From Candidatus Nomurabacteria bacterium (GTDB lineage: Bacteria; Patescibacteriota; Patescibacteriia; UBA1558; GWA2-36-10), in the NCBI GenBank assembly GCA_020632415.1, contig JACKFO010000002.1:228605-292604 (forward strand): DNA of 64,000 nt, given 5' to 3'. Shown in pieces: positions 4,717 through 26,040 of the stretch. Position numbers and translations under genes: made by a program. The notes beneath the pieces are model-generated. The model worked only from the letters and a program-made list of their open reading frames with translations. It did no database searches and had not been told where the DNA came from. Numbering within the stretch: position 1 is the first letter of the stretch; each line of letters begins with the position of its first letter.

Positions 4717-4720
4717 ATTT

Positions 4721-5893: not shown

Positions 5894-5895
5894 TT

Positions 5896-6774
5896 ATGAA
5901 AGAAGCAGATATTTCAATTGTTATTGTTAATTGGAAAGTTAGAGCTTTAGTTGAAAAATGTCTGAAGTCTGTGCTTGCTGATACCAAAGATTTTTCGACA
6001 GAAATTTTTTTAGTTGACAATGATTCTCGTGATGGCACACCAGAAATGATTATGGCTGAATATCCAGAGGTGACAATGATTGCCTTGCCTTATAACCGTG
6101 GTTTCGCTTCAGCTAATAATTTAGCACTCAAACAATCAAGTGGTAAATATTTATTTTTATTAAATCCAGACACCGAAGTTCAACCAGGGTTTTTTAAGAC
6201 AATTATTAATTATTTAGAAACTCACCCAGAAGTAGGTATCTTGGGACCAAGGATTTTGAACTCAGACTTTAGTTTACAAGAATCGATCAGACGTTTTCCA
6301 AGTTTATTATCCCAATTAATAATTTTATTAAAATTAAGACATACTTTTTTGGGACAACATTTATTAAAAAAATATTTAGCCAAAGATTTTGATTATAATC
6401 GCGAAGAAGACGTAGAACAAATCATGGGCGCGGCCATGGTGATTAGACGTGAAGCTTTTGAAAAAATTGGTTATCTAGATGAAAAATTTTTTGTTTGGTT
6501 TGAAGAAGTTGATTATTGTCAGCGAGCAATAGACCAAAAAATTGTCATTAGGTATTTACCAACTTGTGCCATTTTGCATCACAATGGAGCGAGTTTTAAA
6601 AAACAAAGAATATTGAGAAAGCAATTAATTTTTAATAAAAGTCTTATACATTATTTTTATAAGCATAAACCATTTTGGCAATTATTAATTATTTTATTAA
6701 TTTTACCAGTTAATATTCTTTTGACAGCGTTTTATTCTTGGTGGTTTAATAATTATCAAGCCAAAGATGAATAA
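5896..6774 (+). CDS. Glycosyltransferase family 2 (GT-A, rhamnosyl/WbbL-like)
   Basis: 292 aa; SIVIVNWKV...VDNDSRDGT...YNRGFASANNLAL...LNPDTEV (DXD-type). Confidence 0.75.
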   Translation: MKEADISIVIVNWKVRALVEKCLKSVLADTKDFSTEIFLVDNDSRDGTPEMIMAEYPEVTMIALPYNRGFASANNLALKQSSGKYLFLLNPDTEVQPGFFKTIINYLETHPEVGILGPRILNSDFSLQESIRRFPSLLSQLIILLKLRHTFLGQHLLKKYLAKDFDYNREEDVEQIMGAAMVIRREAFEKIGYLDEKFFVWFEEVDYCQRAIDQKIVIRYLPTCAILHHNGASFKKQRILRKQLIFNKSLIHYFYKHKPFWQLLIILLILPVNILLTAFYSWWFNNYQAKDE

Positions 6775-7762
6775 AATACCTAAGGTGACAATTTGTTTGT
6801 TGACTTGGAATGGTCAAGATTATTTACCTTTTCAAATCAAGAGTTTAACCGAGCAGACTTTTCAGGATTGGCAGTTATTAGTATTGGATAATGCTTCTAC
6901 TGATAATTCAGTCGCCGTGATCAATGAATATTTTCCACCAGCCAAAGTGATCAGGCAAAAAGTGAATATTGGTTTTGCTAAGGCGAATAATCTTTTGCTC
7001 AAATGGTCTGATTCAAAGTATGTTTTATTTTTAAATCAAGATGTAATTTTAGAGCCTGATTATTTAGAAAAAACCGTAGCTTTTTTGGATCAGAATTTAA
7101 ACGTCGCTACGGTCTCTGGTAAACTTTTGCATTGGGACTTTGCGGCTTTGGCCAAGACAAAAATTATCGATTCTTTTGGTTTAAAGATAGACAGAAAAAG
7201 AGCGGTTAAAGACATTGATCAAGGAAAGCAAGATTATCAGCTCAAAGACATGGAGGTTTTTGGTTTGTCAGGAGCGCTTTTATTGGCTCGACGTGAAGCT
7301 TTGGAAACAATTAAGATTCCAAAAGCAACGGATGATTTTGAATATTTCGATGAGGATTTTTTTGCTTACAAAGAAGATGTTGATTTGGCTTGGCGCTTAC
7401 GACAGTCTGGTTGGGAAAATTGGTTATTAACTAGCACCAAGGCCTATCATCATCGTACAATTGGCGCTAAGAATTCACAAAAAACTGAGCGTCAAAAAAG
7501 AGGCTTTGTAAACAGACTATCTTATCGCAATCACTTGGCAACTCTTTATAAGAACTCTTTTGCTAAAAATATTTGGAAAGATTTTTTTCCGATCATTTGG
7601 TATGAGTTAAAAAAATTTACTTATTTTTTGATTCTAGAAAGAAAAACTCTTTCTGGTTTGTTTGAATTTTTTAAACTAAAAAAACGTTTTAAGAAAAAAA
7701 GGCAATTTATTGTTAGTCATCGTAAAATAAAAGCAGAGGATATTTATCATTGGTTCAATTAA
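6767..7762 (+). CDS. Glycosyltransferase family 2 (GT-A)
   Basis: 331 aa; VTICLLTWNGQDYL...VLDNASTDNS...NIGFAKANN...FLNQDV; 8-nt overlap with upstream gene. Confidence 0.75.
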   Translation: MNKIPKVTICLLTWNGQDYLPFQIKSLTEQTFQDWQLLVLDNASTDNSVAVINEYFPPAKVIRQKVNIGFAKANNLLLKWSDSKYVLFLNQDVILEPDYLEKTVAFLDQNLNVATVSGKLLHWDFAALAKTKIIDSFGLKIDRKRAVKDIDQGKQDYQLKDMEVFGLSGALLLARREALETIKIPKATDDFEYFDEDFFAYKEDVDLAWRLRQSGWENWLLTSTKAYHHRTIGAKNSQKTERQKRGFVNRLSYRNHLATLYKNSFAKNIWKDFFPIIWYELKKFTYFLILERKTLSGLFEFFKLKKRFKKKRQFIVSHRKIKAEDIYHWFN

Positions 7763-7763
7763 A

Positions 7764-8567
7764 ATGGATTTATCGATTATCATTTTAAATTATTTTAATA
7801 AAGACTTAATTAGAGAATTATTAAAAAATATCTCCACTTTAAATTTGCCCTATAATTATGAAATCATTGTTGTAGACAATGCTTCTTATGACGGCATTGC
7901 TGAGCTAGTCAAAAATCAAGATAAAGTAAGGTTTATTCAAAATAGTGTTAATAGCGGTTTTGCTGCTGGAAATAATTTAGGCATCAAACAAGCCAAAGGA
8001 AAATATATTTTGATTTGTAATCCAGACTTAGCATTTTTTTCTCCAGCTATTGAAATTTTATATCAATATCTAGAAGTTCATCCAGAAGTTGCTTTAGCTG
8101 GGCCACGCCTGATCAATCCTGATAAAACTTTGCAATATTCAGCAACTGCTTTTCCAGATTGGCGCTTACCTTTTTTTCGTCGAACTTTTTTAAGTAAAAC
8201 AAAAAATGGTTCAGCTTGGCTGAAAAAATATTTATTAGCTGATCATGATCATCAAAAAAATTTTTATGCTCCAGCTTTGTTTGGTGCTTGTTTGCTAGTT
8301 AGAGCATCTTCTTTATTTAAAGTTGGTTTGTTAGACGAAAGGTATTTTATGTACATGGAAGATTTGGATTGGTCGCGACGTTTTTGGGAAAATGGTTTTA
8401 AAGTTGCTTATGTTGGAGAAGCAGAGGTAATTCACTTACACAAAAGAGATTCTGCTCAAAGTCTATTAAAAATATTTACCAAAAAAACTGCCCGAGCACA
8501 TATCTTTAGTTTTATTAAATATTTATGGAAATTTAGAGGGAAAAGTCAGCCAAAAACGGATTTTTAG
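7764..8567 (+). CDS. Glycosyltransferase family 2 (GT-A)
   Basis: 267 aa; LSIIILNYFN...VVDNASYDG...NSGFAAGNNLGI...CNPDL; paralogous to the two preceding GT2 genes. Confidence 0.75.
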   Translation: MDLSIIILNYFNKDLIRELLKNISTLNLPYNYEIIVVDNASYDGIAELVKNQDKVRFIQNSVNSGFAAGNNLGIKQAKGKYILICNPDLAFFSPAIEILYQYLEVHPEVALAGPRLINPDKTLQYSATAFPDWRLPFFRRTFLSKTKNGSAWLKKYLLADHDHQKNFYAPALFGACLLVRASSLFKVGLLDERYFMYMEDLDWSRRFWENGFKVAYVGEAEVIHLHKRDSAQSLLKIFTKKTARAHIFSFIKYLWKFRGKSQPKTDF

Positions 8568-8604
8568 TTTTCTTGCTTATTTTAGCTATTTTTACTAAAA
8601 TTAT

Positions 8605-8612
8605 TGTATAAT
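8605..8612 (+). promoter_or_regulatory. Extended -10 promoter (TGTATAAT) upstream of lysS
   Basis: ttatTGTATAATttttt 20 nt upstream of the ATG at 8632. Confidence 0.4.
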
Positions 8613-8631
8613 TTTTTGAATTACTATATTT

Positions 8632-10125
8632 ATGAATAATGATCATCAGGCAGAAATCAATATCAATGATGAATATCAACAAAGATTGTTGAAATTGGCT
8701 CGTTTGAGAGAAAATAAGCTTAATCCTTACCCTTCTCAGAGCTCAAAAAAGGCTCAAATTAGCGATTTTTTGACTGACTTCGAGTCTTTGGCTGAAAACA
8801 AGAAAAAAGTGGTTTTAGCCGGCCGTATTCGTAGCTTGCGTTTGCAAGGCGGTTCAGCTTTTTTGCATTTTGAAGATGAGAGTGGCAAGGTTCAAGCTTT
8901 TGTCCGTAAAGACAATCTTGGCGATGAAAATTATCAAGAGTTTAAAGATAATTATGATCTTGGAGATTTTGTTGAAATTACGGGGACAGCTTTTGAAACC
9001 AAAACCAAAGAACCAACAGTTTTAGCCGAAAGCGTCAAAATATTAAGCAAAACTTTATTGCCTTTACCGGACAAACATGCAGGCTTAAAAGACCCTGATT
9101 TAAGATTTAGAAAGAGATATTTAGACTTGCTAGCAAATTCTGAGGTCAAAGATGTTTTTAAATTACGTACAGCAATTATCAAAAATATCAGAGAATATTT
9201 TGATCAAGTTGGTTTTGTGGAAGTAGACACGCCAATTTTACAGACTGTTGCTGGCGGTGCAACGGCTGCCCCATTTATTACTCACCACAAAGCTTTGGAT
9301 ATTGATTTGTATTTACGAGTTGCTCCAGAACTTTATCTCAAAAGATTGATCATCGGTGGCTACGAACAAGTTTATGAAATTGCTCGTTGTTTTAGAAATG
9401 AAGGCATTGATCATCAGCATAATCCTGAGTTTACCCAAATTGAATTTTACTGGGCCTATAAAGATTATTTATTTTTAATGGACTTTATTGAAAAGTTTTT
9501 TGAACAATTAGTCAAAAAAGTAAACGGCGGAAGTTTGAAGGTAAAAAATGGTGATGACGTCATCGATTTTACTACTCCTTATCCACGCGTAGATTTTAAA
9601 GAAGCTTTAGATAAAGCCTTAAAGATTGATATTGATCAGACTTCTGATCAGGAGCTTGGTAAAATTGCTAAAGATGCTAAATTGCCAGTTGATAAGTCTT
9701 GGGGCCGTGGAAAATTATTGGATGAATTGTACAAAAAATTTGTCCGAGCCAAAATGATTCAGCCACATTTTATTATTAATCATCCTTTGGAGCTGTCACC
9801 TTTGGCCAAAAAAATAGTTGACCGACCAAATTACGTTGAGAGATTTCAATTGGTTGTAAAAACAGCAGAGGTTTGTAATGCCTTTTCAGAATTAAATGAC
9901 CCGATTGATCAAGAAGAAAGATTTAAAGAACAACAAAGATTAAAAGATGGCGGTGATGATGAGGCTCAGGGTGCAGATGCTGATTTCGTGGAAGCCTTGA
10001 AACACGGCATGCCTCCAACAGCAGGTTTGGGCATGGGCATTGATCGTTTAGTAATGTTGCTTGGTAATGTAGAAAATATCAAAGAAGTTATTTTCTTTCC
10101 TACGATGCGACCAAAAGAAAAATAA
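8632..10125 (+). CDS. lysS: Lysine--tRNA ligase, class II
   Basis: 497 aa; N-terminal OB-fold anticodon-binding region plus class II core ([20 protein letters not shown]). Confidence 0.9.
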
Positions 10126-10126
10126 A

Positions 10127-10918
10127 ATGAAAAAAATATTTTTAATTTTAGCTTTAGTGATTTTGTTTACAGGTTGTAGCAAAGTAGAGGAGAGCGCAGA
10201 AAAAACAAATCTTGAATGTCAGTCTTTTGACAACATTGATTCTTGTTTGACAAATGATTGTACAGTCTGTCCACCGAGCATGGAAGCGAGTTCGCTTTCT
10301 TGTCAGACAGCAGAATATTGTCAGGAGCAAGGTTTTAACAAAGATTGGTGGCCAAATATGCAACGACAAATCGAGGAAATAAATAGTCAAAATAATAATT
10401 ATCAAGAAAATATATTAACTGAAGGAGAAATTATGTACGGAACTATTCAAACTACAAAAGGAGAGATTAAAATAGAACTTTATGGTGACAAGGTGCCAAA
10501 TACAGTGGCCAACTTTGTAAAGTTAGCCAATGAAGGGTTTTACAATGGCATTTATTTTCATCGTGTTATTCCGGATTTTATGATTCAAACTGGAGATCCG
10601 CAAGCCAAAGGTACTCCTGGTGTTGATTTTGCTTACGAACCAAATGAGCAAAATTTGCCAATCGCCGGCACCGGTGGACCAGGTTATAAATTTGCCGATG
10701 AATTTAGTCCAGATTTAAGACATGACAAAGCAGGTGTGCTTTCTATGGCCAACTCCGGAGCAAATACCAATGGCTCGCAATTTTTTATTACTCACGTCGC
10801 GACTCCTTGGCTAGATGATGTTCATTCTGTTTTTGGTCAAGTGACCGCAGGGCAAGATGTAGTAAATAACATTGTTCAAGGCGATAAAATTATTTCAATT
10901 GTTATTGATCAAAAATAA
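10127..10918 (+). CDS. Peptidyl-prolyl cis-trans isomerase, cyclophilin type, lipoprotein with Cys-rich N-terminal module
   Basis: 263 aa; lipobox LFTGC; 8 Cys in residues 30-70; cyclophilin motifs [22 protein letters not shown]. Confidence 0.8.
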
Positions 10919-10922
10919 TAAT

Positions 10923-12167
10923 ATGTTAGACATTAAATTCATCAAGGAAAATAAAGATCTAGTACAAAAAAATAATCAAAGCAGAGGAGTAAAAGTTGAT
11001 ATTGATCAGCTACTTGATGTTTATGAAGAGCGTAATGTTTTGTTAAAAAAAGTTGAAGAAAAAAGATCTTTACGTAAACAAGAGTCAAAGACCAAACCAA
11101 GTCCGGAGATAATTGCTAAAATGAAAATGCTTGGTGAAGAACTAAAAACAATCGAAGAAGAACTCAAAGACAAAGAGCAAGAGTTAAATTTATTGTTATG
11201 GCAAATACCAAATATTAATATGCCGGATGTGCCGCTTGGCGGAGAAGAAAATACTAAGGTTGAAAAAACAATTGGCAAGATTCCAAGTTTTGATTTTCCA
11301 GTGCAACACCATGCTGATTTGGGGCAAAATTTAGATTTGATTGATTTAGAACAGGGCGCAGTTGTTTCAGGTGCTCGTTTTTGGTATTTAAAAAATGAAT
11401 TGGTAGAATTACAATTTGCTTTGATGCAATTTGTTTGGTCTAAGTTAATTAAAAAAGGATTCAAACCTTTAGCTGTTCCGCATTTGGTTAAAGAAGAGGC
11501 AATGTTTGGTACTGGTTTTTTTCCAGCTGAAAAAAATGAAATTTACAACGTCAACCAGGAAGAAGATAATTTGTATTTGATTGGAACAGCTGAAGTGCCA
11601 CTAATTAGTTTTCATGCTGGCCAAACTTTAGATTTGAAAGAAGCAAAAAAGTATTTTGCTTTTACTCCGGCTTATCGTCGTGAAGCAGGGTCTTATGGTA
11701 AAGATACCAAAGGAATTTTGCGTGGTCACCAATTTGATAAAATTGAAATGGTCATTTTTTGTCGCCCGGAAGAATCACAAAAATATCATCAAGAAATTTT
11801 AAGCATTGAAGAAGAAATTTGGCAGGAATTAAAAATTCCTTATCAAGTGGTCAATATTGCTAGTGGTGATTTGGGTGCGCCGGCGGCTAAAAAATACGAC
11901 ATCGAAGCTTGGCTGCCAGCTCAAAATACTTATCGAGAAGTGACTTCTTGTTCAAATACAACAGATTTTCAGAGTCGTCGTTTGCAGATCAAATATGAGC
12001 AAGATAATAAAAAAGAATTGGTTCACACCTTAAACGGCACTGGCATGGCTTTTGGCCGAGCTTTGATTGCTGTAATGGAAAATTATCAAAATGCCAAAGG
12101 TGAAATTGAAGTACCGAAGGTTTTACAAAAGTATTTGTCATTCAAAAAAATCAAGAAAGAAAAATAA
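10923..12167 (+). CDS. serS: Serine--tRNA ligase
   Basis: Start chosen at MLDIKFIKENKD (ORF-track start 10872 would overlap the cyclophilin gene by 47 nt); coiled-coil N-arm; class II motifs FRREAGSYGKDTKGILRGHQF, GTAEVPL. Confidence 0.85.
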   Translation: MLDIKFIKENKDLVQKNNQSRGVKVDIDQLLDVYEERNVLLKKVEEKRSLRKQESKTKPSPEIIAKMKMLGEELKTIEEELKDKEQELNLLLWQIPNINMPDVPLGGEENTKVEKTIGKIPSFDFPVQHHADLGQNLDLIDLEQGAVVSGARFWYLKNELVELQFALMQFVWSKLIKKGFKPLAVPHLVKEEAMFGTGFFPAEKNEIYNVNQEEDNLYLIGTAEVPLISFHAGQTLDLKEAKKYFAFTPAYRREAGSYGKDTKGILRGHQFDKIEMVIFCRPEESQKYHQEILSIEEEIWQELKIPYQVVNIASGDLGAPAAKKYDIEAWLPAQNTYREVTSCSNTTDFQSRRLQIKYEQDNKKELVHTLNGTGMAFGRALIAVMENYQNAKGEIEVPKVLQKYLSFKKIKKEK

Positions 12168-13285
12168 TGCCTTTAACTTGGTTAGAGATTAATCAAAAAA
12201 ATTTAGTTCACAATATCAGAGAGTTTCAAAAAATTGCTCCAAATAGTCAGATTTGGCCAGTGATCAAAAGTAATGCCTATGGTCACGGCCTAAAAGAAAT
12301 AGCCTCTATTTTAGACAAAGAGGATTTGGTCAAAGGAATGATGGTTGTCAGTCTTGATGAAGCGATCGAACTAAATCAACTAACTCAAAAACAAATTATG
12401 GTTTTGAGTTATTTTGACTACGATGATAACGAGCGACAATTGAAAATAGCAGCTGAACAAAAAATTTCTTTACCGATTTATGATTTAGAAACTGCAGCTT
12501 ATTTAGATCATCTAGCGCAAAAATTAAAACTTAAGTTTTTGATCAACATCAAAATTGACACCGGAACTTCTCGTTTAGGCTTTGTTTTAAGCGAGGCAGA
12601 AGTAGCAATTGAGCGAATTAAAAAATATCAAAATTTAGAAATTAATAGCTTTTATACTCATTTTGCTGAAAGTGAAGCAGAGGAACAGGCTTTTACCACT
12701 TCCCAACTGGAGGCTTTTTCTAAAATAGCCACTAAATATCCAAACGTTTTAAAACACGCTGCTTGTTCTGCTGCTACCTTGAGTCAAAAAGAAGCACAAC
12801 AAGACATTATTCGCCTTGGTTTATCTCTTTATGGTCTACATCCTAGTGAGGCTAGTAAACTGCGCGCTTGGCGCAATCAAATGTGCTTACAGCCGGTATT
12901 AACTTGGAAAACAAAAATTATTCAAATCAAAGAAGTAAAAGCCGGCACAACGGTTGGCTATAATCGGACTTATACTTGTCCTCAAGATTGTAAATTGGCT
13001 ATTTTGCCCATTGGTTATAACGAAGGTTATGATCGTAGTAATTCTAACCAAGCAGAAGTTTTGATTGCTGGCGTAAGATATAAAGTCAGAGGAAATATTT
13101 GTATGAATTTAAGCATCGTTGAATTGCCTCTAGATAGTGAATTCAAGAGAGGAGAGGAAGTAGTTTTATTAGGTAAATCTGGTGGACAATATTTAGCGGC
13201 AGAAGAATTAGCCACTTGGGCTCAGACTATTAATTATGAGATTGTGACCAGGATTAACAGTCAAATACCAAGACTGATTATCTAA
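12167..13285 (+). CDS. alr: Alanine racemase
   Basis: 372 aa; PLP-lysine motif VIKSNAYGHG, typical N-terminal barrel plus C-terminal beta domain. Confidence 0.8.
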   Translation: MPLTWLEINQKNLVHNIREFQKIAPNSQIWPVIKSNAYGHGLKEIASILDKEDLVKGMMVVSLDEAIELNQLTQKQIMVLSYFDYDDNERQLKIAAEQKISLPIYDLETAAYLDHLAQKLKLKFLINIKIDTGTSRLGFVLSEAEVAIERIKKYQNLEINSFYTHFAESEAEEQAFTTSQLEAFSKIATKYPNVLKHAACSAATLSQKEAQQDIIRLGLSLYGLHPSEASKLRAWRNQMCLQPVLTWKTKIIQIKEVKAGTTVGYNRTYTCPQDCKLAILPIGYNEGYDRSNSNQAEVLIAGVRYKVRGNICMNLSIVELPLDSEFKRGEEVVLLGKSGGQYLAAEELATWAQTINYEIVTRINSQIPRLII

Positions 13286-13341
13286 ATAATATTAAACGAC
13301 ACAAAAAAGGACCTTAAGCTCAAAGAGAGGAATCAAGAGAA

Positions 13342-14166
13342 ATGAGAATTCAAAGCAGAAAAACTTGGCAACAGCATCTTCCGAATCGGACACGAAAAGT
13401 GTCTAAGAATTATTATTACAAAAAAGGTATTAATAAAAAAAATTTAATTAAAAAAATTGTTTTGGTTATTTTATTTTTATTATTAGTACAATCATTATTT
13501 CAATTACCATTTTTAAGAATAAATAAATTTGTTTTGTCTAACAATCAAGATTTAAAACAAGAAGATTTACAGAGTTTAGTTAGTCAGTACTTAGAACAAG
13601 ATAAGTATTTGTTATTTAAAAATAATAATTACTTTTTATTTGATCAAAGTGATTTAAAACAAGATTTATTAAATACTTACAATCTAGATAGCGTCAGTAT
13701 CCAAAAAAAGTTTCCGCAGACAATAGAAATCAAGGTCACGGAAAAGATTTCTCAGTTTATTTTACAAAAAGATGATGCATTATACCTCTTAAGTTCCAAA
13801 GGGGCCTTAAATCGCCAAATAAACGCTCTTGATGAAAAATACCTTATTTTACAGGACTTTCGTAGCGATTCTTTGAATCTAGAACAAATTTTGAATGAAG
13901 ATGAGCTAGAATTAATCAACTTTTTTTATAAATCTTGGCAAGAAACATTTGGGCAAAGTCCTAAATTAAAAACAATATTTTTAACAGATAGTTTAGATAC
14001 TTTATTAGAAGCTCAAACTGATATTGGTTATACAGTAAAATTAGATCCAGAGAAAAATATTATTGAACAGTTAAATAATTTAAAAAAAGTATTAGCTGGA
14101 AATATTATTGGAATTGATATTGATTATATTGATTTACGTTTTGGTGAAAGAGTATTCTTTAAGTAG
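13342..14166 (+). CDS. Cell division protein FtsQ/DivIB-like (single TM plus POTRA)
   Basis: 274 aa; basic N-terminus, one TM helix, POTRA-like pattern (FPQTIEIKVTEK...); next to alr. Confidence 0.55.
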   Translation: MRIQSRKTWQQHLPNRTRKVSKNYYYKKGINKKNLIKKIVLVILFLLLVQSLFQLPFLRINKFVLSNNQDLKQEDLQSLVSQYLEQDKYLLFKNNNYFLFDQSDLKQDLLNTYNLDSVSIQKKFPQTIEIKVTEKISQFILQKDDALYLLSSKGALNRQINALDEKYLILQDFRSDSLNLEQILNEDELELINFFYKSWQETFGQSPKLKTIFLTDSLDTLLEAQTDIGYTVKLDPEKNIIEQLNNLKKVLAGNIIGIDIDYIDLRFGERVFFK

Positions 14167-14183
14167 TTAATAGAGTTGATGAG

Positions 14184-14216
14184 AACGGTAATTGTTCAAA
14201 AATACCGTTTTTATTA
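14184..14216 (+). terminator. Rho-independent terminator after ftsQ-like gene
   Basis: AACGGTA-attgttcaaaaa-TACCGTT followed by TTTTTATT. Confidence 0.6.
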
Positions 14217-14226
14217 ATTATAAATG

Positions 14227-14256
14227 AATTGAGTATAATAACCCTTACACTCAATT
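14227..14256. other. Candidate Xer recombination (dif-like) site: 11-8-11 imperfect palindrome
   Basis: AATTGAGTATA-ATAACCCT-TACACTCAATT; arms match 10/11 as inverted repeats; directly upstream of the only tyrosine recombinase in the window. Confidence 0.4.
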
Positions 14257-14284
14257 TGACAATGCTCAAAAATCTGTCTATACT
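14256..14284 (+). promoter_or_regulatory. Sigma-70-type promoter for the Xer recombinase gene (TTGACA-17-TATACT)
   Basis: Consensus -35 TTGACA (14256-14261), 17-nt spacer, -10 TATACT (14279-14284); -35 abuts the right arm of the palindrome. Confidence 0.6.
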
Positions 14285-14310
14285 TAAAGTATTAAAATAA
14301 AGATGCAAAT

Positions 14311-15255
14311 ATGGCAAAATACACCCTTCCTCTCTTGGATGAGTTTTTAGAGAATATTCAGTCCAATAATTACTCCCCGGAGACAGTTTATAATTATGAA
14401 AGAGATTTAAATATTTTTGAAATATTTTTAAACGAGGATCTTCAGATTCCTTTTAAGGATTTAAGTAAAAGGACAATTATTAAATTCAAGGCCTACCTCT
14501 CCTCTACTTCTCGTCTAACACCAGCTCATGAGCTAGGTGAAAAACAATTAGTTAGTTTTAGTATTAATAGAATTTTATCAGCCTTGAGATCTTATTTAAA
14601 ATTTTTAGGAGAAATAGATTATAAAACTCCGGTGACTGCTGACGCTGTCAAACTTTTGAAAACTGAAAAAAAACATGCTCAAGTAGCAGAGATGAATGAA
14701 TTGATTGCAATTATTGAGGCGCCAAATAAGTTTGAAAAAGAAATAAATATTAAGCTACGTAATCGAGCAATGCTGGAAACCCTTTTTGCTACTGGCATGC
14801 GTATTTCAGAATTATTATCTTTGAAGCGCGAGCAATTAGATAACACTGGAAGAATTTATATTATGGGAAAAGGTAAAAAACAACGCTTTGTTTATTTGAC
14901 ACCCCGAGCTATTGAGCATTTACGTCTTTATCTAAAAACTAGAACTGACGAGTCTATGTATATGTTTATTCCTTATCGTGGTCGTAATAATCAAAGCAAA
15001 CACAAGAAAATTTCTAATAATTATCTTCAGTATAAATTAAAAAGATATCGTGAGTTATTAGGAATTAATATTCCTATTTCTCCTCATTCGCTTCGTCATG
15101 GCTTTGCGACCTATTTAGCTGAAAATGGGGCTAATCCGGCGGCAATTCAAATTCTTTTAGGACATGAGTCTTTGGATACTACGACACGCTATGTGCATGC
15201 TTCTGATAAATACGCTGAAAAAATGCATACTCAATTTCATCCTCTAAAAAAATAA
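14311..15255 (+). CDS. Tyrosine site-specific recombinase, XerC/XerD family (single Xer, XerS/XerH-like arrangement)
   Basis: 314 aa; C-terminal catalytic signature HSLRHGFATYLAENGANPAAIQILLGHESLDTTTRYVH (R..HxxR..Y). Confidence 0.85.
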   Translation: MAKYTLPLLDEFLENIQSNNYSPETVYNYERDLNIFEIFLNEDLQIPFKDLSKRTIIKFKAYLSSTSRLTPAHELGEKQLVSFSINRILSALRSYLKFLGEIDYKTPVTADAVKLLKTEKKHAQVAEMNELIAIIEAPNKFEKEINIKLRNRAMLETLFATGMRISELLSLKREQLDNTGRIYIMGKGKKQRFVYLTPRAIEHLRLYLKTRTDESMYMFIPYRGRNNQSKHKKISNNYLQYKLKRYRELLGINIPISPHSLRHGFATYLAENGANPAAIQILLGHESLDTTTRYVHASDKYAEKMHTQFHPLKK

Positions 15256-15278
15256 AGTCCCGAGCAACAGCACGGGAC
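15246..15278 (-). terminator. Rho-independent terminator (minus strand) for the small ORF
   Basis: Minus-strand reading: AGTCCCG-tgctgttgct-CGGGACT then TTTATTTTTTT. Confidence 0.6.
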
Positions 15279-15311
15279 TCGATGGTGTGAATGTCTAGCC
15301 AGACATCTTGC

Positions 15312-15458
15312 TCAGTGTGGCAGGAAACTGGCTACAAAGAGGCCGGCGAAAATGACCAGGATCAGTAGAACCAGTGTAGCTGGCCACTCAAAGCGTCTGA
15401 TTCGTTGGTCTTGATAGCCATTCAAGGCATTTTGCTTTTGTTGTTTGCGACTACTCAT
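15312..15458 (-). CDS. Small membrane protein (48 aa), in a GC-rich islet with own promoter, SD and terminator
   Basis: MSSRKQQKQNALNGYQDQRIRRFEWPATLVLLILVIFAGLFVASFLPH; strong SD AGGAGGAAA 6 nt upstream of ATG; basic N-terminus plus one TM helix; too short for the ORF track. Confidence 0.4.
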   Translation of the reverse strand: MSSRKQQKQNALNGYQDQRIRRFEWPATLVLLILVIFAGLFVASFLPH

Positions 15459-15500
15459 TGTCAGTTTCCTCCTCTAGTGGGTGAAGATCAGAATGGATTT

Positions 15501-15529
15501 ATTTTAAGCTTTTGTTGCTATTTTGTCAA
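15501..15529 (-). promoter_or_regulatory. Sigma-70-type promoter (minus strand) for the small ORF: TTGACA-16-TTAAAAT
   Basis: Minus-strand reading: attTTGACAaaatagcaacaaaagcTTAAAATaaatcc. Confidence 0.4.
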
Positions 15530-15533
15530 AATT

Positions 15534-17405
15534 TTATTTGGTAGTTAATAAAATTTTACCAGCCCTCACTTGCTCACTTATTTCTGAGTCAAGATTTGAC
15601 CAGCTAATTAGATTTTCTAAAAATATTTTTTTCTCATCAGATTTCATTAGTGATAACTGAACTTTTTCAGAGCTAATTGGAAATAAGTATATTTCTAATT
15701 GGCCTTCTCTTAGATGAATGCCTATAGACAGCTCTTGCTGTGTGTCTTGAGAAAAATATTGATCAAAAACAAAATTTCCTAGAGAATAAAATATTGGCTT
15801 ATTATTATAGATTTCTAGACCCTGAACAACGTGAGGATGGTGTCCGATCAGGATGTCCGCGCCAGCGTCAATGACTTGGTGTGCTAGATTTTTTTGTAAG
15901 TTATTTATCTGATGTTGATATTCGGTTCCCCAATGTATTTGAACGATTACTAGATCGTGTTCATTTTTAGCTTTTTCTATTTTTTTCAGAGCCTGTTCAA
16001 GATCAAATTGTCCATAAACCATACTAAATCCAAGTAAAGCAACTTTTTTGTCAGCAATATTTATTGTTGTAAGACTGCATTGATCAACGGCTCTATCAGT
16101 ACAACCAGAAAAATCTAAGTCAAGTTTTTTAAGATTCTGAGTAGTCTCTTCTAGTCCTCTAGCTCCTTGATCTCCGAGATGATTATTGGCTAGATTAAAA
16201 AAATTGAAAAAATATTTATTTTTTAATTCTGATAAATATTTTGGGTCAGCAGCAAAATCAATTGTAAGTTCCGGTGGATAATGATCGCCGTTGTTAGTCA
16301 AGGCGCTTTCTAGGTTAGCACTCACTAAGTCATTACCCATAAAAAACCGGTTTTCTCCACCAGCTAAATCATCAAAAACATAGCCAAGCCCATTGTTTTC
16401 AAGTTTATTTTTTACATCTCGATCTAGCATCAAGTCACCAAAAAAAAGCAAATTCATCCCATTTTTTTGAAGATTTTCTCCTTTGGAAAAATAATAAAAT
16501 AAATGACTAGTCCCCGCTTCTTCAGGCGTGTCTAATAAATCGCTAGAATTTGTATGAAAAACTAAGTCAGATTTTTTTGCTTCTATTTTTTCTAAGTAAC
16601 TTAAAATAGTATAAATTGAAGCTGGAGAATCTATTTCTAGCTTGTTTACTCGCTCTAGATCAAAATCTTCTATGACACTTTGGCTTAGCTGATCATGAAA
16701 ATCTGCAACGGATAAGGGTTGATAATGTGAAAAATCAACGCTAGCTAAAATCAAAGTTTTTTCCGGGTCAGTATTGTTTTTTAGATAGTCTACCAAGAGA
16801 TCCAAATCTTTTTTTGGTGTATTAGTTTTTAAGATAATTGGTAAGATTTTAGCTTCTGTTAAGCTGTTTTTAATGAAAGGTACCAAACCAGAAATAGAAT
16901 GTTCATTTAAAAATGGCCCTTCTTCAATGCTGATCTCTTTGTTTTGAGCAAGTTGTTTTCCAAGTTCTAAGTCAGGCAATAATTCTCCGTAAGGAGTTTG
17001 CCATTTATTTTGCGAAATAATGATGTTATTTGTCCCCGTCTGATAATGATTTGGTCCGATCAAAATTACTGTCTGATAATCTTTTTTGGCTAAACCCATA
17101 AACCAAGCGGCCACTTTGTCTTTGACGATTAAATGATGCGGAATAATTCCGCCATAAATTTTTTCATTTGCTATTTTTATGCTACTAGTGCCCGCAGTGT
17201 AAGCTTCATCATAAAATGATCTGTTCATATAATAAGAATCGTGACTCTTGAGTATTAATTCTTCGTTTTTTTTCTGCGGATTGGATATTTTTAGCGAGCC
17301 TAAAAGACTATTATTATTGTAATTTAAATAAACATAAATTAGTCCCACTTGTAAGATAAGCAGGACTAAAGTTAGAGTTATTATTTTATGATATTTTTTA
17401 AGCAT
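15534..17405 (-). CDS. Fusion protein: N-terminal MEMO1/AmmeMemoRadiSam-protein-B-like domain plus C-terminal CapA/PGA_cap metallophosphatase-like domain; N-terminal TM anchor
   Basis: 623 aa; Memo motifs GGIIPHHLI, IGPNHY, NEHSISG, SVDFSHY; CapA motifs LVIVQIHWGTEYQHQ, GADILIGHHPHVVQGLEIY, FYSLGNFVFDQ. Confidence 0.7.
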   Translation of the reverse strand: MLKKYHKIITLTLVLLILQVGLIYVYLNYNNNSLLGSLKISNPQKKNEELILKSHDSYYMNRSFYDEAYTAGTSSIKIANEKIYGGIIPHHLIVKDKVAAWFMGLAKKDYQTVILIGPNHYQTGTNNIIISQNKWQTPYGELLPDLELGKQLAQNKEISIEEGPFLNEHSISGLVPFIKNSLTEAKILPIILKTNTPKKDLDLLVDYLKNNTDPEKTLILASVDFSHYQPLSVADFHDQLSQSVIEDFDLERVNKLEIDSPASIYTILSYLEKIEAKKSDLVFHTNSSDLLDTPEEAGTSHLFYYFSKGENLQKNGMNLLFFGDLMLDRDVKNKLENNGLGYVFDDLAGGENRFFMGNDLVSANLESALTNNGDHYPPELTIDFAADPKYLSELKNKYFFNFFNLANNHLGDQGARGLEETTQNLKKLDLDFSGCTDRAVDQCSLTTINIADKKVALLGFSMVYGQFDLEQALKKIEKAKNEHDLVIVQIHWGTEYQHQINNLQKNLAHQVIDAGADILIGHHPHVVQGLEIYNNKPIFYSLGNFVFDQYFSQDTQQELSIGIHLREGQLEIYLFPISSEKVQLSLMKSDEKKIFLENLISWSNLDSEISEQVRAGKILLTTK

Positions 17406-17406
17406 T

Positions 17407-19215
17407 TTAGTGTAAAGCGCCGCCCCACTCTGTCAGGACAAATCCTTCTCGGATTGGAGTTTTAAATGTTTGAGCTTGGACATTTATTTTCTGATCCAAA
17501 GCTCTGTAGTCCATGAAGACGCGAATAATTGTATCTGGCTTTGGACTGACTTCTAGCGGAGCTAGTTGATCAAACTGTTCTTGAGGAACAAAAGTAATAA
17601 AGTAGTAAGGTTTTTCTTGCATTTTTGGTGCCCAGAAATCAATAAATTCATTGTACTCTTGAGCTATTAAACCTTGTTGAGCTAATTTTTCAGTTAAAAA
17701 TTCAATAATATTTTCTCTAGCCACAACAAAACCTTTGTCTGGCATTTGATAATTTAATCCTAAGCCTTCCCAAAATAAATAAGGATAGTTTTTCTGATCA
17801 TCATAGTTATACAAATTTCCTTCAGGATCAGCTTTGACTAGCCAGCCATTTTTGTATTCCGGCTCAGTAATTGTCAGACCATTATTTGGAAAAACTTTGA
17901 CTAAAATGTCAGTAGTTTTTTCAGGATAAAGGTAGATAACCGGCTTGCCCATTTCAACTGGTGGTACATATTTGGCGTTTTTAAACATGATATACTTTCC
18001 AAAAGGATCTTGCCAAAATAAAACTGGATGATCAGCCAAAAACTCTGAAAAACTTGGCTTATCTTGTCCTTCTGGCGAGTAAATAGTGTCGTACATTGAT
18101 TGAAGTAGAGATTTTTGATCGTTAGCTTGTTCTTTTAAATTAATATCAGCTAATTCATAAATAGCATCGCCAGCAAAAGTTTCCCCGGTCTTTTTTATTT
18201 GAGAGTTATTGCTAATAAAATTAGCATAGTCATAACAGCCGACGTCTGGTGAAAAATAAAATGTTTTATTAAACAGATATTCGTTGTTATTATCAGAGTT
18301 GTCGTCAAATGAAATGTTTAGTTTGTATGGTTTTAAGCCAAAATAAGAACTAGGATCTTGGCTTTCTTCGCCGACGAAGTTTAAGTCTAGGATGTAGTTG
18401 ATCGCTGAGTGGTCATTTTGTTCAGCAATATAGCAGTTGTTAACGTTGTCTTTGTAAATAGTAACTTCATCGTTGCTTAAAATTTCTTGAGCGTTATAAT
18501 CACTTAGTATTTTTTTTGGATCGGTTTCGGCTTTGGTAAATTTATTGTTTGTATTTGGGATATTAACAATCTCTGGATTATCTTCTAGATTCTTAATTGT
18601 TATTAAATTATTAAATTTAAATAAACTTCCATAGCTAAAATAAACAAGACTATTTTCATCATTGAGACTCGATTCGTTTTTGATGATTATCAGCTCTCCA
18701 TCATTATTAATAATTCTGCTGATACCATTTGATAAACAAGGGCCTTCACAAGGTAAAGTGGCCAAATACAAATCTTTTCCTTGGTAAGGGCCTTCGGCTA
18801 TTGTTCCGGCGTTATAAAATGAAACACGATTATAGACAAACTCATATAAAGAGCCGTAGTTATCAATAAAATTTTGATTATTGAGTAAGGACTCATTTAA
18901 ATTACTAGTTTTTTCACCAAAAATTTCATTAGCGTTGCTAATTTTGGCCAACCAATTTTTCCAATCAACTCTAATTTCATTTGTTGCTAATTCTTCTTCC
19001 TCTTCTGAACTATTTGTGCCATTAATAATGTTTTGATTTATAATATTTATGTTTTGTTGATTTTCTAAATTAATTTCTGAATTTTTTTTATTAAATAAAA
19101 AATAGACAGTAAGTAAATTACTGATTATTAATAAAATTACTAAAAGCGAGAGTGTGAGTTTAAAGTGATTTTTTTCTGTCTTTATTTCCACACTCTTTTC
19201 TTCTTGAAAATCCAT
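17407..19215 (-). CDS. Hypothetical membrane-anchored secreted protein, Asn/Ser-rich
   Basis: 602 aa; one N-terminal TM helix then low-complexity N-rich region; 1-nt spacing to the downstream Memo-CapA gene (operon). Confidence 0.5.
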   Translation of the reverse strand: MDFQEEKSVEIKTEKNHFKLTLSLLVILLIISNLLTVYFLFNKKNSEINLENQQNINIINQNIINGTNSSEEEEELATNEIRVDWKNWLAKISNANEIFGEKTSNLNESLLNNQNFIDNYGSLYEFVYNRVSFYNAGTIAEGPYQGKDLYLATLPCEGPCLSNGISRIINNDGELIIIKNESSLNDENSLVYFSYGSLFKFNNLITIKNLEDNPEIVNIPNTNNKFTKAETDPKKILSDYNAQEILSNDEVTIYKDNVNNCYIAEQNDHSAINYILDLNFVGEESQDPSSYFGLKPYKLNISFDDNSDNNNEYLFNKTFYFSPDVGCYDYANFISNNSQIKKTGETFAGDAIYELADINLKEQANDQKSLLQSMYDTIYSPEGQDKPSFSEFLADHPVLFWQDPFGKYIMFKNAKYVPPVEMGKPVIYLYPEKTTDILVKVFPNNGLTITEPEYKNGWLVKADPEGNLYNYDDQKNYPYLFWEGLGLNYQMPDKGFVVARENIIEFLTEKLAQQGLIAQEYNEFIDFWAPKMQEKPYYFITFVPQEQFDQLAPLEVSPKPDTIIRVFMDYRALDQKINVQAQTFKTPIREGFVLTEWGGALH

Positions 19216-19235
19216 ATTTTTTTGTAAGTTTATAT

Positions 19236-20480
19236 TTAAGGTAAATAATTCAAAGGATTAACGGGTATGCCATTTAAACGGACTTCTAGATGCAAATGAG
19301 GCCCAGTAGTGAACGGTCCAGCGCCACGAGTGCCCGGCATACCGCCAGAATAGCCAATAATTTGGCCTTTACTGATGAATTGGTCTTCTTCTACGGAAAT
19401 AACATTAACATGGCCATAAACTGATGATAAGCCGTCAGCGTGAACTAGCATGATGTAGCTGTAACCAGTTTGTCCGCCATCTTTAGCCTTAGCAACATAG
19501 CCAGAATCGATAGCTCTAATTGCTGTTCCTTGAGCTGCTTTAATGTCAATTGCTGGATGTTCAAAAATATAACGATAAGGATAATCAGGGTCATGAAAAG
19601 TAGCAGTAACAATTTGAGATGGCACTGGCCACATAAAACCGTCAGAGTTAAGTTCTTGCTGTTCTAATTGACGATTTAGTCTTTCACGGGCAGTTTGTTC
19701 TAAATAGACAATGTCGCTATTAAGCTGCTGTTGTTCTTGTCTGGCTTGTTCAAGTAAAGCTTGATAGCTCGCTTCTTGGCCATGAGTTTGTTCCAAAAGA
19801 TTGGCTTTGACGATTTTTTGACCACTTAAACTTTCTTTTTTACTAGCTAGTCTTTCAGCTAAAACTAATAATTCATCTTGATTTGCTTCTAGCTCTTTTT
19901 TTTCATCAGTCAAAGATAATTTGATTTTTTGCAAGTCCTCTACTCTAGACAGTAAAGTGTCTTGTAGATCTTCCATTCTTTTTATTTCACCGATAAAGTC
20001 ACTAAAATTGTTATTCATCAGCAAAACTTCTAACAAACTAGTATTTTGTTGTTCACGGTGAACGGTTCTTAAAATTTCAGCGATCACTGCTTTTTGTTCG
20101 GAAATTTCTTTTTCTTTAGCTTGAATTTTGATATTTGTATTTTCAATTTGCAAAGCAGCGGTTTCTTTTTCCAGCTCAATAGTTGCCACTTCTAAATTTA
20201 TTTTGGCAATACTTTCGTTAATCGTTGCAACTTGATTTGATAGAGAGTTTAGTTCTCGTTGTTTTGCGGTGATATTTTTTTTGTAGACATCGATTTGTTT
20301 GTTTAGTTCAGTAATTGTCGAACGTTTTTCGTTGATGTCTTGATTGAGTTGCCATAATTCTTGATTGACCTCACTGCCGAAGTTGTATTCAACAGCTTTA
20401 CTAATCGTTGGAAATAAAAAGCTAGCCAAAAAACTAGCTAAGATAAGTCGAGCGATTATTTTGATTTTTATTTTATTCAT
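19236..20480 (-). CDS. M23 family metallopeptidase with N-terminal coiled-coil (EnvC/LytM-like murein hydrolase or activator)
   Basis: 414 aa; signal/TM, about 250 aa coiled coil, C-terminal M23 motifs HADGLSSVYGHV and HLHLEVR. Confidence 0.8.
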   Translation of the reverse strand: MNKIKIKIIARLILASFLASFLFPTISKAVEYNFGSEVNQELWQLNQDINEKRSTITELNKQIDVYKKNITAKQRELNSLSNQVATINESIAKINLEVATIELEKETAALQIENTNIKIQAKEKEISEQKAVIAEILRTVHREQQNTSLLEVLLMNNNFSDFIGEIKRMEDLQDTLLSRVEDLQKIKLSLTDEKKELEANQDELLVLAERLASKKESLSGQKIVKANLLEQTHGQEASYQALLEQARQEQQQLNSDIVYLEQTARERLNRQLEQQELNSDGFMWPVPSQIVTATFHDPDYPYRYIFEHPAIDIKAAQGTAIRAIDSGYVAKAKDGGQTGYSYIMLVHADGLSSVYGHVNVISVEEDQFISKGQIIGYSGGMPGTRGAGPFTTGPHLHLEVRLNGIPVNPLNYLP

Positions 20481-20500
20481 GATCTTTTTAACTATTCTAT

Positions 20501-20511
20501 ATTATAACACA
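20501..20511 (-). promoter_or_regulatory. Extended -10 promoter (TGTGTTATAAT, minus strand) for the M23 peptidase gene
   Basis: Minus-strand reading: ttttGTGTTATAATATAg; the same 17-nt box recurs at 23341-23358 on the plus strand. Confidence 0.4.
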
Positions 20512-20536
20512 AAATAGTTATTTTCTCCAAAATTTT

Positions 20537-21970
20537 TTAAGAGAGTTTATCCACAGCCTGTTTTAGGCGTTTTAAACTTTCCTCTTTTTCCAAAACCCAC
20601 AAGATTTCTGCTGGAGAAGGACTTTTTTCTTGTCCTGACAAAGCAACGCGCACTGGCCAAAATAGATCACCAGGATTTAAGTTATGATCTTGAATTAATT
20701 TATCTAATAGCTCAAATAATTCTTTTTCTTGCCATTGATCTTCTGTTATTTTTGCTAAATTCTCTAGAGCTAGATTTAGACCAAGCTTAGTTTTTTCTAA
20801 ATCACTTTTTTTGAAAATCAACATTTCTGCCGGATAATCAGCTAAATTATAATAAAATGCAGCCGCTTCTTTTAGTTCTGATAAATTGTTTAACCTACTA
20901 CCAGAAACTTTTAAAACTTTTTCTAAATCGTAAGTAGTTGCTAATATCTTTTTTGATTCGTTTAAAATATTTTGGTAAGTAGCGTCTTGGTTATTGATTG
21001 CTTGGCGAATATATTCAGCATTAAACCAGTTTAATTTCTGTAAATCAAAAATTGCCCCAGCTTTATTAATTTTTTCTAGTGAAAATTCTTTTTCTAGGTC
21101 TTTGAGGCTAAAAAATTCTTGATCAGTACCTGGATTCCAGCCCAAAAGTGCTACGTAGTTTAACAAAGCCTCTTTTAGATATCCTTTGGCTAAAAAATCT
21201 TCCACCGCAACATCTCCTTGGCGCTTAGAAAGTTTAGAACGATCGGGGTTTAATAATAATGGCAAGTGGACGAATTCCGGGATTGCATTTTCCCAGCCAA
21301 ATGCTTGGTATAACAAATAGTGTTTTGGCAGCGAAGGAAGCCATTCCTCTCCTCTGATCGCATGACTAATTTGCATTTCATGGTCATCGATGATATTCGC
21401 TAAATGGTAAGTAGGAAAACCATCTGATTTTAAGATAATAAAATCATCTAAATCAAGGTTATTAACGGTGATTTTGCCATAAACCAAATCATTGACTTCC
21501 GTCTTTTTTTCACTTGGGACATAAAAACGAATGACATGTTTTTCTCCTTTAGCCAATTTTTCTTCAATTTCTTCAGGGCTTAAATTTAAGCAATGACGAT
21601 CATAACGAGGCATTTGTTTCTTAGCTTGTTGTGATTCTCTTAAGTTTTCTAAGCGTTCAGCAGAACAAAAACAATAATAAGCCTTTTTTTCGGCAACTAA
21701 GTTTTTTGCGGCTTCTTGGTAAATTTTAATCCTTTTTGATTGAATCATTGGCTCTTGATTGTCGAAATCTAAGCCCATTTCTCGTAAAATTTTGATTAAA
21801 TTTTCAGCTGCTCCTTCGACTAAACGATTTTGATCAGTATCTTCTATTCTTAATAAAAATTGACCATTGTTTTTTTTGGCCCAAAGATAATTAAACAAAG
21901 CCGTGCGTAATCCGCCAATATGTAGGTAGCCAGTTGGACTTGGAGCAAATCTGCTAATAATTTTTTTCAT
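20537..21970 (-). CDS. gltX: Glutamate--tRNA ligase
   Basis: 477 aa; HIGH motif HIGGLRTALFN, KMSKS-type motif KLSKR. Confidence 0.9.
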   Translation of the reverse strand: MKKIISRFAPSPTGYLHIGGLRTALFNYLWAKKNNGQFLLRIEDTDQNRLVEGAAENLIKILREMGLDFDNQEPMIQSKRIKIYQEAAKNLVAEKKAYYCFCSAERLENLRESQQAKKQMPRYDRHCLNLSPEEIEEKLAKGEKHVIRFYVPSEKKTEVNDLVYGKITVNNLDLDDFIILKSDGFPTYHLANIIDDHEMQISHAIRGEEWLPSLPKHYLLYQAFGWENAIPEFVHLPLLLNPDRSKLSKRQGDVAVEDFLAKGYLKEALLNYVALLGWNPGTDQEFFSLKDLEKEFSLEKINKAGAIFDLQKLNWFNAEYIRQAINNQDATYQNILNESKKILATTYDLEKVLKVSGSRLNNLSELKEAAAFYYNLADYPAEMLIFKKSDLEKTKLGLNLALENLAKITEDQWQEKELFELLDKLIQDHNLNPGDLFWPVRVALSGQEKSPSPAEILWVLEKEESLKRLKQAVDKLS

Positions 21971-21975
21971 ATGAA

Positions 21976-22713
21976 TTAATTTTTTTCTAATTTATTTTTT
22001 ATCACCAGAAAAGGAAAAATAATTGTTGCTCGAAAAATTCTTTTTAAACGATTTGGTTGCTTGATTAAGCGCCAGAACCATTCTAATCCGAAGCTGGAAA
22101 ATATTTTTGGTGCTCTTTTTTGTGCTTCGGATAAAAAATCTACAGCACCACCAATTCCAGCAGCAATTTTGACACTGGATAAACGAGTTAAATTTTCAGC
22201 AATCCATTCTTCTTGTTTCGGCGCACCTAAGCCAACTAAAAGTATTTCTGGTTGTAAAATTTGTCCTTTTAAGATAGCTTCTTTTTCGATGGCAACTTGA
22301 AATTCTAGGTTTGGGTATTTTTCTTTTAGTTTAAAGTATAGTTTTTCTGGTTTAGTGAAACCATCTTCTCTTAAGCAAAATAACACCTTGTAGCCCTTGA
22401 TGCTAGCAATTTGTAGCAACATTTCAGTCAAACGGACGCCGGTTAGACGATGATTAAGCGAGACTTTGTGTCCATTAAGCTGCAAAGCCCAGATTATTCC
22501 CGTGCCATCAATAGTAGCTAGACTTGTTTCTTTTAAGATAGTTTTAAATTTTTTATTTTTTTGTGCTTCTAAAATAAATTCTGGATTGACAGTAGCTATT
22601 TGATGTTGTTGGTCAGAAGTTAAAAAATCAAACAAAAGCTCTTTGGCTAAATGTTCAGGAAGATAGTTTACCTTGACTCCTAAAATTTCAAACTCTTGCA
22701 TATTATAAATCAA
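21976..22713 (-). CDS. WecG/TagA/CpsF family glycosyltransferase (GT26)
   Basis: 245 aa; LVGLGAPKQEEWIAEN...GIGGAVDFLSE..KRAP..GLEWFWRL closely matches TagA/WecG C-terminal signature. Confidence 0.85.
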   Translation of the reverse strand: MIYNMQEFEILGVKVNYLPEHLAKELLFDFLTSDQQHQIATVNPEFILEAQKNKKFKTILKETSLATIDGTGIIWALQLNGHKVSLNHRLTGVRLTEMLLQIASIKGYKVLFCLREDGFTKPEKLYFKLKEKYPNLEFQVAIEKEAILKGQILQPEILLVGLGAPKQEEWIAENLTRLSSVKIAAGIGGAVDFLSEAQKRAPKIFSSFGLEWFWRLIKQPNRLKRIFRATIIFPFLVIKNKLEKN

Positions 22714-23266: not shown

Positions 23267-23347
23267 AATTATCTAATTTGTAGCTTGATTTTAGCCTAAA
23301 ATTAGACTTTTAGCAAATTTGTCTTATTTTTGGTTTCTATTTTTTTG

Positions 23348-23356
23348 TGTTATAAT
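23348..23356 (+). promoter_or_regulatory. Extended -10 promoter (TGTTATAAT) for the 23400 gene
   Basis: tttTGTGTTATAATATAagtc; 44-nt leader to ATG. Confidence 0.4.
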
Positions 23357-23399
23357 ATAAGTCATAGGAAAAAGATTTTATTTACCTTATTTTTGATTT

Positions 23400-24839: not shown

Positions 24840-24840
24840 T

Positions 24841-26032: not shown

Positions 26033-26040
26033 ATCAAATT

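Follow-up and report, generated by a model that had tools for sequence, protein, structure and literature searches.

A conserved dif-like element beside an Xer recombinase gene in Patescibacteria

What is the purpose of a palindrome that stands just ahead of a tyrosine recombinase gene? The case considered here comes from a Candidatus Nomurabacteria bacterium, in a stretch of 64,000 nucleotides of contig JACKFO010000002.1 (referred to as the window; all positions are counted from its first letter). An initial annotation took the palindrome for a possible dif, the site of chromosome dimer resolution. Our own reading is that a 30-bp element at this place is quite probably the dif of the adjacent Xer protein, with site and gene forming a single module at the replication terminus. 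This verdict depends on comparative evidence and not on the palindrome alone. In a full-text literature search, no paper was found linking dif, or the resolution of chromosome dimers, to Patescibacteria or CPR.

The palindrome, its gene, and its promoter

The element occupies positions 14227 to 14256, has the sequence AATTGAGTATAATAACCCTTACACTCAATT, and consists of two 12-bp arms around a 6-bp center, AATTGAGTATAA-TAACCC-TTACACTCAATT; neither the whole nor its parts are assigned to a strand. The arms are complementary at 11 of 12 positions. The left arm, AATTGAGTATAA (14227 to 14238), would be the site for one Xer monomer, and it contains the hexamer TATAAT (14234 to 14239), which reaches one base into the center. 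The center, TAACCC (14239 to 14244), is the putative region of strand exchange; it is not palindromic and would thereby give the site a polarity. The right arm, TTACACTCAATT (14245 to 14256), has kept a C where a T would make the arms symmetric. The initial annotation had coordinates and sequence exactly right, placing 11-bp arms at 14227 to 14237 and 14246 to 14256 with a match of 10 in 11. Its 11-8-11 reading describes the repeat correctly, but the repeat extends one base further inward on each side, and 12-6-12 is preferred because this is the canonical spacing of tyrosine recombinase core sites.

An ftsQ-like gene and xer are separated by 144 bp, and the element is found there, with 54 nt between it and the xer ATG (14311). 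A sigma-70-type promoter for xer, TTGACA-17-TATACT, follows on the plus strand (14256 to 14284) and scores 11/12 against the consensus, with TTGACA at 14256 to 14261 and TATACT at 14279 to 14284. That a consensus promoter adjoins the right arm had been pointed out before; the contact is in fact an overlap, as base 14256 belongs to both the −35 box and the arm. The ftsQ-like gene (POTRA_1; 13342 to 14166, plus strand) is the conserved upstream neighbor of the module, with the same synteny in relatives. At its end, folding predicts a terminator-like hairpin with a T-run (14184 to 14214, plus strand), which places the element outside the ftsQ-like transcript. Another hairpin (15256 to 15279, plus strand; fold z = −3.7) comes right after the xer stop codon and is probably a terminator.

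The xer gene (14311 to 15255, plus strand) encodes a 314-aa tyrosine recombinase with intact catalytic residues, found in the motifs ATGMRISEL, GKGKK, SPHSLRH, and LLGHESLDTTTRYVH. The catalytic set (R, K, HxxR, H, and Y) is complete, and the protein matches XerC, XerD, and XerA models and structures. It had been called a lone recombinase, and within the window this is so: tblastn finds no other tyrosine recombinase encoded there. Nor was FtsK seen among the large open reading frames (ORFs) checked in the partly annotated window. In many species xer sits in a conserved core gene order of lysS, PPIase, serS, alr, ftsQ, and xer. Elsewhere in the window are two VirD4/TraG/TrwB-like coupling proteins and a T2SSE-type secretion ATPase (49030 to 50778, 60490 to 62931, and 37141 to 38874, all on the minus strand), which resemble the type IV secretion and pilus content reported for Patescibacteria.

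How unusual is such a palindrome? The window contains five 12-6-12 palindromes with at least 11 of 12 positions matched, versus a mean of 0.6 expected from Markov-1 simulations, and the other four are A/T-run hairpins of the terminator type. The palindrome by itself is just mildly unusual, and its significance comes from conservation. Likeness to known dif sequences is of no more help. The element shares 15 to 17 of 28 positions with Escherichia coli dif (sequence from PMC3025954) and, at 14228 to 14255, 18 of 28 with the Pyrococcus abyssi dif ATTGGATATAATCGGCCTTATATCTAAA (sequence from PMC2958812), and other positions in the window do equally well or better. Raw identity to dif was therefore not counted as evidence, being no better than background in AT-rich DNA. 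The best match to P. abyssi dif in the window (20 of 28; 12953 to 12980, GTTGGCTATAATCGGACTTATACTTGTC) falls within alr, which encodes alanine racemase, and is nonpalindromic (6/11); this makes plain how uninformative raw dif identity is in this DNA. Architecture is another matter. The element has the two inverted arms of about 11 bp and the center of 6 to 8 bp expected of such a site, whether it is read as 12-6-12 at 11/12 or as 11-6-11 at 10/11, and its inner ATAA...TTA is as in dif. It is the sole intergenic candidate with dif architecture in all 64 kb and the best one, with none nearer to the skew maximum described below, and no second copy of the 30-mer occurs in the window at up to three mismatches.

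Conservation of the site and its linkage to xer

If the significance of the element comes from conservation, how well is it conserved? With one genome taken per species, a scan by protein gave 39 loci. Of these, 31 have an Xer that is 65 to 88% identical, and 30 of the 31 carry the 30-mer upstream of xer at 26 to 30 identities in 30; these loci span genomes labeled Parcubacteria, Komeilibacteria, and Magasanikbacteria. When 29 loci (the window and 28 relatives found by protein alone, with Xer 65 to 100% identical) are aligned at the site, their 30-mers share a mean pairwise identity of 0.92, versus 0.29 to 0.40 in the 30-nt blocks that flank it, two on each side. A DNA-pattern scan of metagenome contigs added at least 120 loci. 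With metagenome and genome loci combined, the site is upstream of an xer homologue in at least 119 loci. The gap between site and gene is −6 to 107 bp in at least 97 of these, and the rest have one or more genes in between. Loci with no detected xer are mostly short or truncated contigs or contigs of RNA viruses. In related DNA, 521 kb in all, each locus has a single site; a second match in one relative (L028, at 16200) is weak, nonpalindromic, and inside a coding region, and was set aside as chance.

Which parts of the site are conserved? Among the matches listed, there are 68 distinct sites. Positions 4 to 12 are invariant in 68 of 68, a result partly forced by the search pattern, and position 22 is C in 59. 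The center, with the consensus TAWYYC, is the most variable part. The outer bases of the arms were free in the search pattern at positions 1/30 and 3/28, and these are complementary in 44 and 38 of the 68 sites, respectively, while shuffle controls give 27.2 ± 3.2 and 20.2 ± 3.5, and 0 of 5,000 shuffles reach the observed values. The pairs of outer arms include AATT/AATT, AACT/AGTT, GACT/AGTC, and GAGT/ACTC. The outer bases of the arms thus co-vary in a manner that preserves the dyad symmetry. Additionally, two conserved features, the single A/G difference between left and right arm and the nonpalindromic center, would fit a protein-bound, polar recombination site better than a hairpin.

The arrangement of site and promoter is less constant. 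In at least nine loci the site is flipped relative to xer. In the clade of the window, the −35 box directly adjoins the site, and TGACA and a downstream TATAAT are conserved; in flipped loci a −10-like box is found just upstream. TGACA directly follows the site in 25 of 87 direct sites among the matches listed. Conservation of the site is therefore not due to any one promoter geometry.

Some loci carry additional genes, and these come in several kinds. In three of them (L214, 8511 to 10933; L215, 8523 to 10933; and L216, 3882 to 6292), the operon consists of ftsQ, an intact second recombinase (323 to 327 aa), DUF8371 (166 aa), and xer. These operons have no GAGTATAA-type site and are headed instead by the palindrome AAGTTCGCATAA-TATAGG-TTAAGCGAAGTA, which is located downstream of a TTGACA-17-TATACT promoter. 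In these comparisons, the site changes along with the set of recombinase genes. About 12 loci among the matches listed (including L096, L113, L135, L140, L155, L117, and L078) have, ahead of xer and after the site, an ORF of about 460 aa in which the second recombinase (40% identity) is fused to DUF8371 (43% identity). The fused ORF is degenerate, with TGLK for TGLR, PEILRW for PHxLRH, and loss of the C-terminal tyrosine region. The fusion protein could bind the site as a noncatalytic partner. In loci with the fusion gene, the right outer arm is often CTCATAA, though this is not a strict correlate of fusion or paralogue, as several loci in which xer directly follows the site (L106 and L110, for example) have CTCATAA too. 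In at least eight loci (L024 to L026, L057, L061, L086, L090, and L131), an ORF of about 160 aa for an HNH endonuclease (Pfam HNH/HNH_5) lies between site and xer; L090 has further ORFs of 92 and 276 aa there as well.

What of more distant relatives? Dojkabacteria and Saccharibacteria have 11-6-11 sites 240 to 510 bp upstream of xer, with arms that approach those of canonical dif. For example, the right arm of the Dojkabacteria site ATTGAGTATAA-TCAACC-TTATGTTGAAT, namely, TTATGTTGAAT, matches the XerD arm of E. coli dif, TTATGTTAAAT (PMC3025954), at 10 of 11 positions. By their sequences, the sites of the more distant CPR lineages seem to form a bridge to canonical dif arms.

The replication terminus and known Xer systems

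A dif site is expected to mark the terminus, and the initial annotation said as much of this one, should it be a dif. Does it? The genes from 131 to 15255 are all on the plus strand, and from 15534 they are nearly all on the minus strand. The interval between (15256 to 15533, no strand assigned) thus holds the convergence of gene orientation and also the first break in GC skew. To the left of about 15 kb the skew is about +0.13; from 15.5 to 32 to 34 kb it stays near 0, and farther right it is about −0.12. When the cumulative skew is fitted with three segments, the breaks fall at 15.0 and 34.0 kb; the cumulative curve reaches its maximum at 27.4 kb. A change from positive to negative skew together with converging genes indicates a terminus rather than an origin. 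The cumulative maximum is 13.2 kb from the site, or 1.6% of the 842-kb contig on record for this protein, which is inside the 5% used as a criterion of terminus proximity (Kono et al.). The skew switch and gene convergence near the site bear out the expectation, but with the cumulative maximum 13 kb away, what the site marks is a terminus region and not a sharp point.

The site is at the left edge of a zone of 17 to 19 kb with near-zero skew. Within this zone (15500 to 34000) there is hardly any skew whichever way the genes point, and a plus-strand block (23400 to 27443) is found among minus-strand genes. The zone could be a broad one in which replication forks meet, being replicated from either side, or it could be a region that was rearranged, perhaps recently. 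The first gene on the converging side (15534 to 17405, minus strand) encodes a 623-aa fusion of a Memo/AmmeMemoRadiSam-B-like protein and a CapA-type PGA_cap domain, and the next (17407 to 19215) encodes a 602-aa protein without a family match. Related loci have the same convergence of genes and fall in skew. Since the gene order around xer is conserved among them, these terminus-like contexts are not independent of one another. The contig coordinates of the relatives were also considered as a way to place xer opposite the origin, but contig starts are arbitrary, and the coordinates are uninformative. Taken as a whole, the dif-like reading of the initial annotation has fared well, as each prediction that could be tested was borne out: the element is unique in the window, it lies at a gene convergence and a skew break, and it is conserved beside xer.

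Which of the known Xer systems does this one resemble? It is established that a single recombinase can form a module with a dif beside its gene, as XerS/difSL, XerH/difH, and the XerA of the Sulfolobales do. The initial annotation had put this forward as characteristic of single-recombinase systems in general; it holds for these three and fails for the XerA of the Thermococcales (PMC2958812). In XerS/difSL, a single recombinase gene adjoins dif, and the module is located at the terminus (PMC5357621; PMC2958812). The likeness is that site and gene are neighbors in one module. However, difSL is 31 bp long, with an 11-bp center and unequal arms, and XerS has 356 aa, in contrast to the 12-6-12 geometry and 314 aa found here. 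The score against the XerS model (NF003462) is 94.3, with a cutoff of 267, and this score and the 6-bp center place the protein and its site outside XerS/difSL. The XerH/difH system of Helicobacter and Campylobacter also relies on one recombinase, whose gene has dif nearby (PMC5357621). XerH has 354 to 362 aa and arms of the AGTTATGAAAA/AAAAGTTTGA type, whereas the present protein is shorter and its arms are unrelated to AGTTATGAAAA; with 51 bits against the XerH structure sequence (5jjv), it does not belong there either.

Archaeal XerA/dif shares the single recombinase and the near-perfect palindrome with a 6-bp center, though the 18 of 28 positions shared with P. abyssi dif are, as mentioned, not above the background of the window. 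The score against the XerA model (NF040815), 172.3 with a cutoff of 220, is the nearest approach to any cutoff and still falls under it; in addition, dif is apart from xerA in the Thermococcales, and the host here is bacterial. The highest model scores of all are those for XerC (TIGR02224; 197 bits, cutoff of 335) and XerD (TIGR02225; 183 bits, cutoff of 330), both far under their cutoffs. The XerC/XerD pair differs in other ways as well: canonical dif has distinct arms and the genes are not beside it, whereas here there is one recombinase gene at the locus, and in the window, and the arms are nearly identical. Among solved structures, those of XerD and XerA are closest. The protein is below the curated thresholds of every named Xer family and, to judge by its sequence, belongs to a distinct Patescibacteria Xer subfamily.

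One described group may include it. In the relevant passages of PMC8138268, Smyshlyaev et al. (2021) set apart, among simple tyrosine recombinases, a “Cand” subgroup that is related to Xer and found in candidate phyla. The same passages suggest that, where a taxon has no Xer protein, other simple recombinases specific to its class may make up for the missing Xer function. The 314-aa protein is probably a member of the “Cand” subgroup, a placement made by taxonomy alone. No cognate DNA site for this subgroup is described in those passages of PMC8138268.

What the element may do, and for whom

Is the element really a recombination site? The alternative that stands up best is that it is an operator only, through which Xer or some unrelated dimeric regulator controls xer, the true dif being elsewhere. 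All the layouts seen bring the site into contact or overlap with the xer promoter, and the co-variation of the dyad would suit any homodimeric DNA-binding protein. An operator, however, has no need of a position at a gene convergence and skew break, nor of a 12-6-12 geometry with inner ATAA/TTA, which is that of a recombinase core site. The 64-kb window, with the skew maximum inside it, offers no better dif candidate, the gene-adjacent site in XerS and XerH modules is the real dif (PMC5357621), and related sites occur in phage genomes that have no xer to regulate (described below). We consider an operator without a recombination function to be unlikely.

Could the element instead act through transcription or RNA, with TGAGTATAAT serving as an extended −10-type promoter and the palindrome as a hairpin in a transcript or the terminator of the upstream gene? 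The TATAAT in the left arm is perfect, two loci (L021 and L022) have TTGACA 16 nt upstream of it, and the element folds as single-stranded DNA (z = −3.5). But it is the whole 30 bp that is conserved and not one hexamer, and the site stays constant while the promoter geometry varies by clade. The A-C mismatch in the stem is retained rather than repaired, the site falls between the ftsQ-like terminator and the xer promoter and is not clearly in either transcript, and no Rfam family overlaps it. The motif is, moreover, specific to xer loci, since most of the at least 120 pattern matches are beside xer. This explanation is very improbable. No more probable is an attachment site or scar left by a mobile element that brought the recombinase, for although integrative elements typically have a recombinase beside its own site and tailed phage contigs carry sites with the same arms, xer is part of a core gene order shared by many species, each locus has one copy, which is not repeated in direct orientation in the 10 kb to its left or right, and the TAWYYC-type center of the chromosomal sites was not found in the viral contigs scanned.

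How would the element work as a dif? As we infer it by analogy to XerS, XerH, and XerA, one Xer monomer would bind each 12-bp arm, and the two sister sites of a chromosome dimer would synapse as a tetramer. Cutting and strand exchange would take place at the edges of TAACCC by way of a Holliday junction, with whatever dependence on FtsK this may entail, and the dimer would be converted to monomers before division. The A/G difference between the arms, along with the nonpalindromic center, would impart polarity and probably determine which strands are exchanged first. Because the right arm overlaps the −35 box, occupancy by Xer probably represses xer as well, an autoregulation that the initial annotation had also suggested.

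The site may not be used by the chromosome alone. A family of tailed double-stranded DNA (dsDNA) phages, recognized by TerL, portal, and primase, carries copies with perfect arms. In one phage (L163, 8416 to 8445; the same phage is represented by L161, L162, L170, L184, and L189 to L192), the copy is AACTGAGTATAA-TGACCA-TTATACTCAGTT, 266 bp upstream of terL. A subgroup with 68% identical TerL (L197, 7624 to 7653; also L199 and L200) has AACTGGGTATAA-TGCTTA-TTATACTCAGTT, 2.37 kb upstream of terL. In four other groups of phage-like contigs (L047, 3080 to 3109; L139, about 3602 to 3631; L169, 6099 to 6128; and L186, 13302 to 13331), a palindrome of this type, such as AAGTGAGTATAA-TAGTCA-TTATACTCAGTT, heads an apparent terS/terL/portal block, judged as such by the size and order of ORFs alone. 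No recombinase gene was found in the parts of the site-bearing phage contigs that were inspected.

Not every viral match is of this kind. In a scan of viral contigs with the site pattern, most matches were on contigs of about 4.5 kb that proved to be single-stranded RNA (ssRNA) leviviruses, identified by the RNA replicase beta chain and unrelated to Xer. In L160 (3279 to 3308), L167 (1767 to 1796), and about 12 similar contigs of 4.3 to 4.9 kb, the match is ATTGAGTATAA-TTAAAA/TTATAA-TTATACTCAAT within the maturation protein gene. Two more contigs (L165 and L180) are dicistrovirus-like RNA viruses with a similar hairpin, again unrelated to Xer. These RNA virus matches fall within coding regions and are hairpins in RNA or chance; by a rough estimate, a few chance matches are expected for an AT-rich pattern of 19 bases.

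Why would a phage carry such a site? One speculation, on balance doubtful, is that the site is a target at which Xer acts in trans and which other genetic elements and accessory proteins also make use of. The phages would then borrow the host Xer, either to integrate at dif in the manner of an IMEX or to turn dimers of their circular genomes back into monomers. Integration at dif finds no support in the TerL homologues: none of them is on a large CPR contig, and the contigs that carry them are all 45 kb or shorter. The second recombinase with DUF8371, or the degenerate fusion, positioned between site and xer, likewise suggests a new form of accessory control over Xer recombination. If the speculation is true, this would be the first such phage case and would provide a phage-host link for Patescibacteria.

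What would a dif at this locus mean for these bacteria? If the preferred reading is true and the element is the dif of its neighboring Xer, the Patescibacteria (CPR), a large and mostly uncultured group, would gain a defined dimer resolution site with the consensus RAYTGAGTATAA-TAWYYC-TTACACTCARTT, or RAYTGAGTATAA-N6-TTAYACTCARTT in pattern form. They would become the fourth bacterial or archaeal lineage in which recombinase and site make up a single module, and the site would be a likely target for recombinases of candidate phyla that are related to Xer, perhaps those of the “Cand” subgroup as outlined in the passages of PMC8138268 mentioned above. The variant operons, with their second recombinase, DUF8371, or HNH insertion, and the phage copies would offer material on how Xer gains and loses partners. 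Finally, the consensus would mark the replication terminus in metagenome-assembled genomes, a marker that could aid in checks of assembly and closure and in the placement of origin and terminus for estimates of replication rate.
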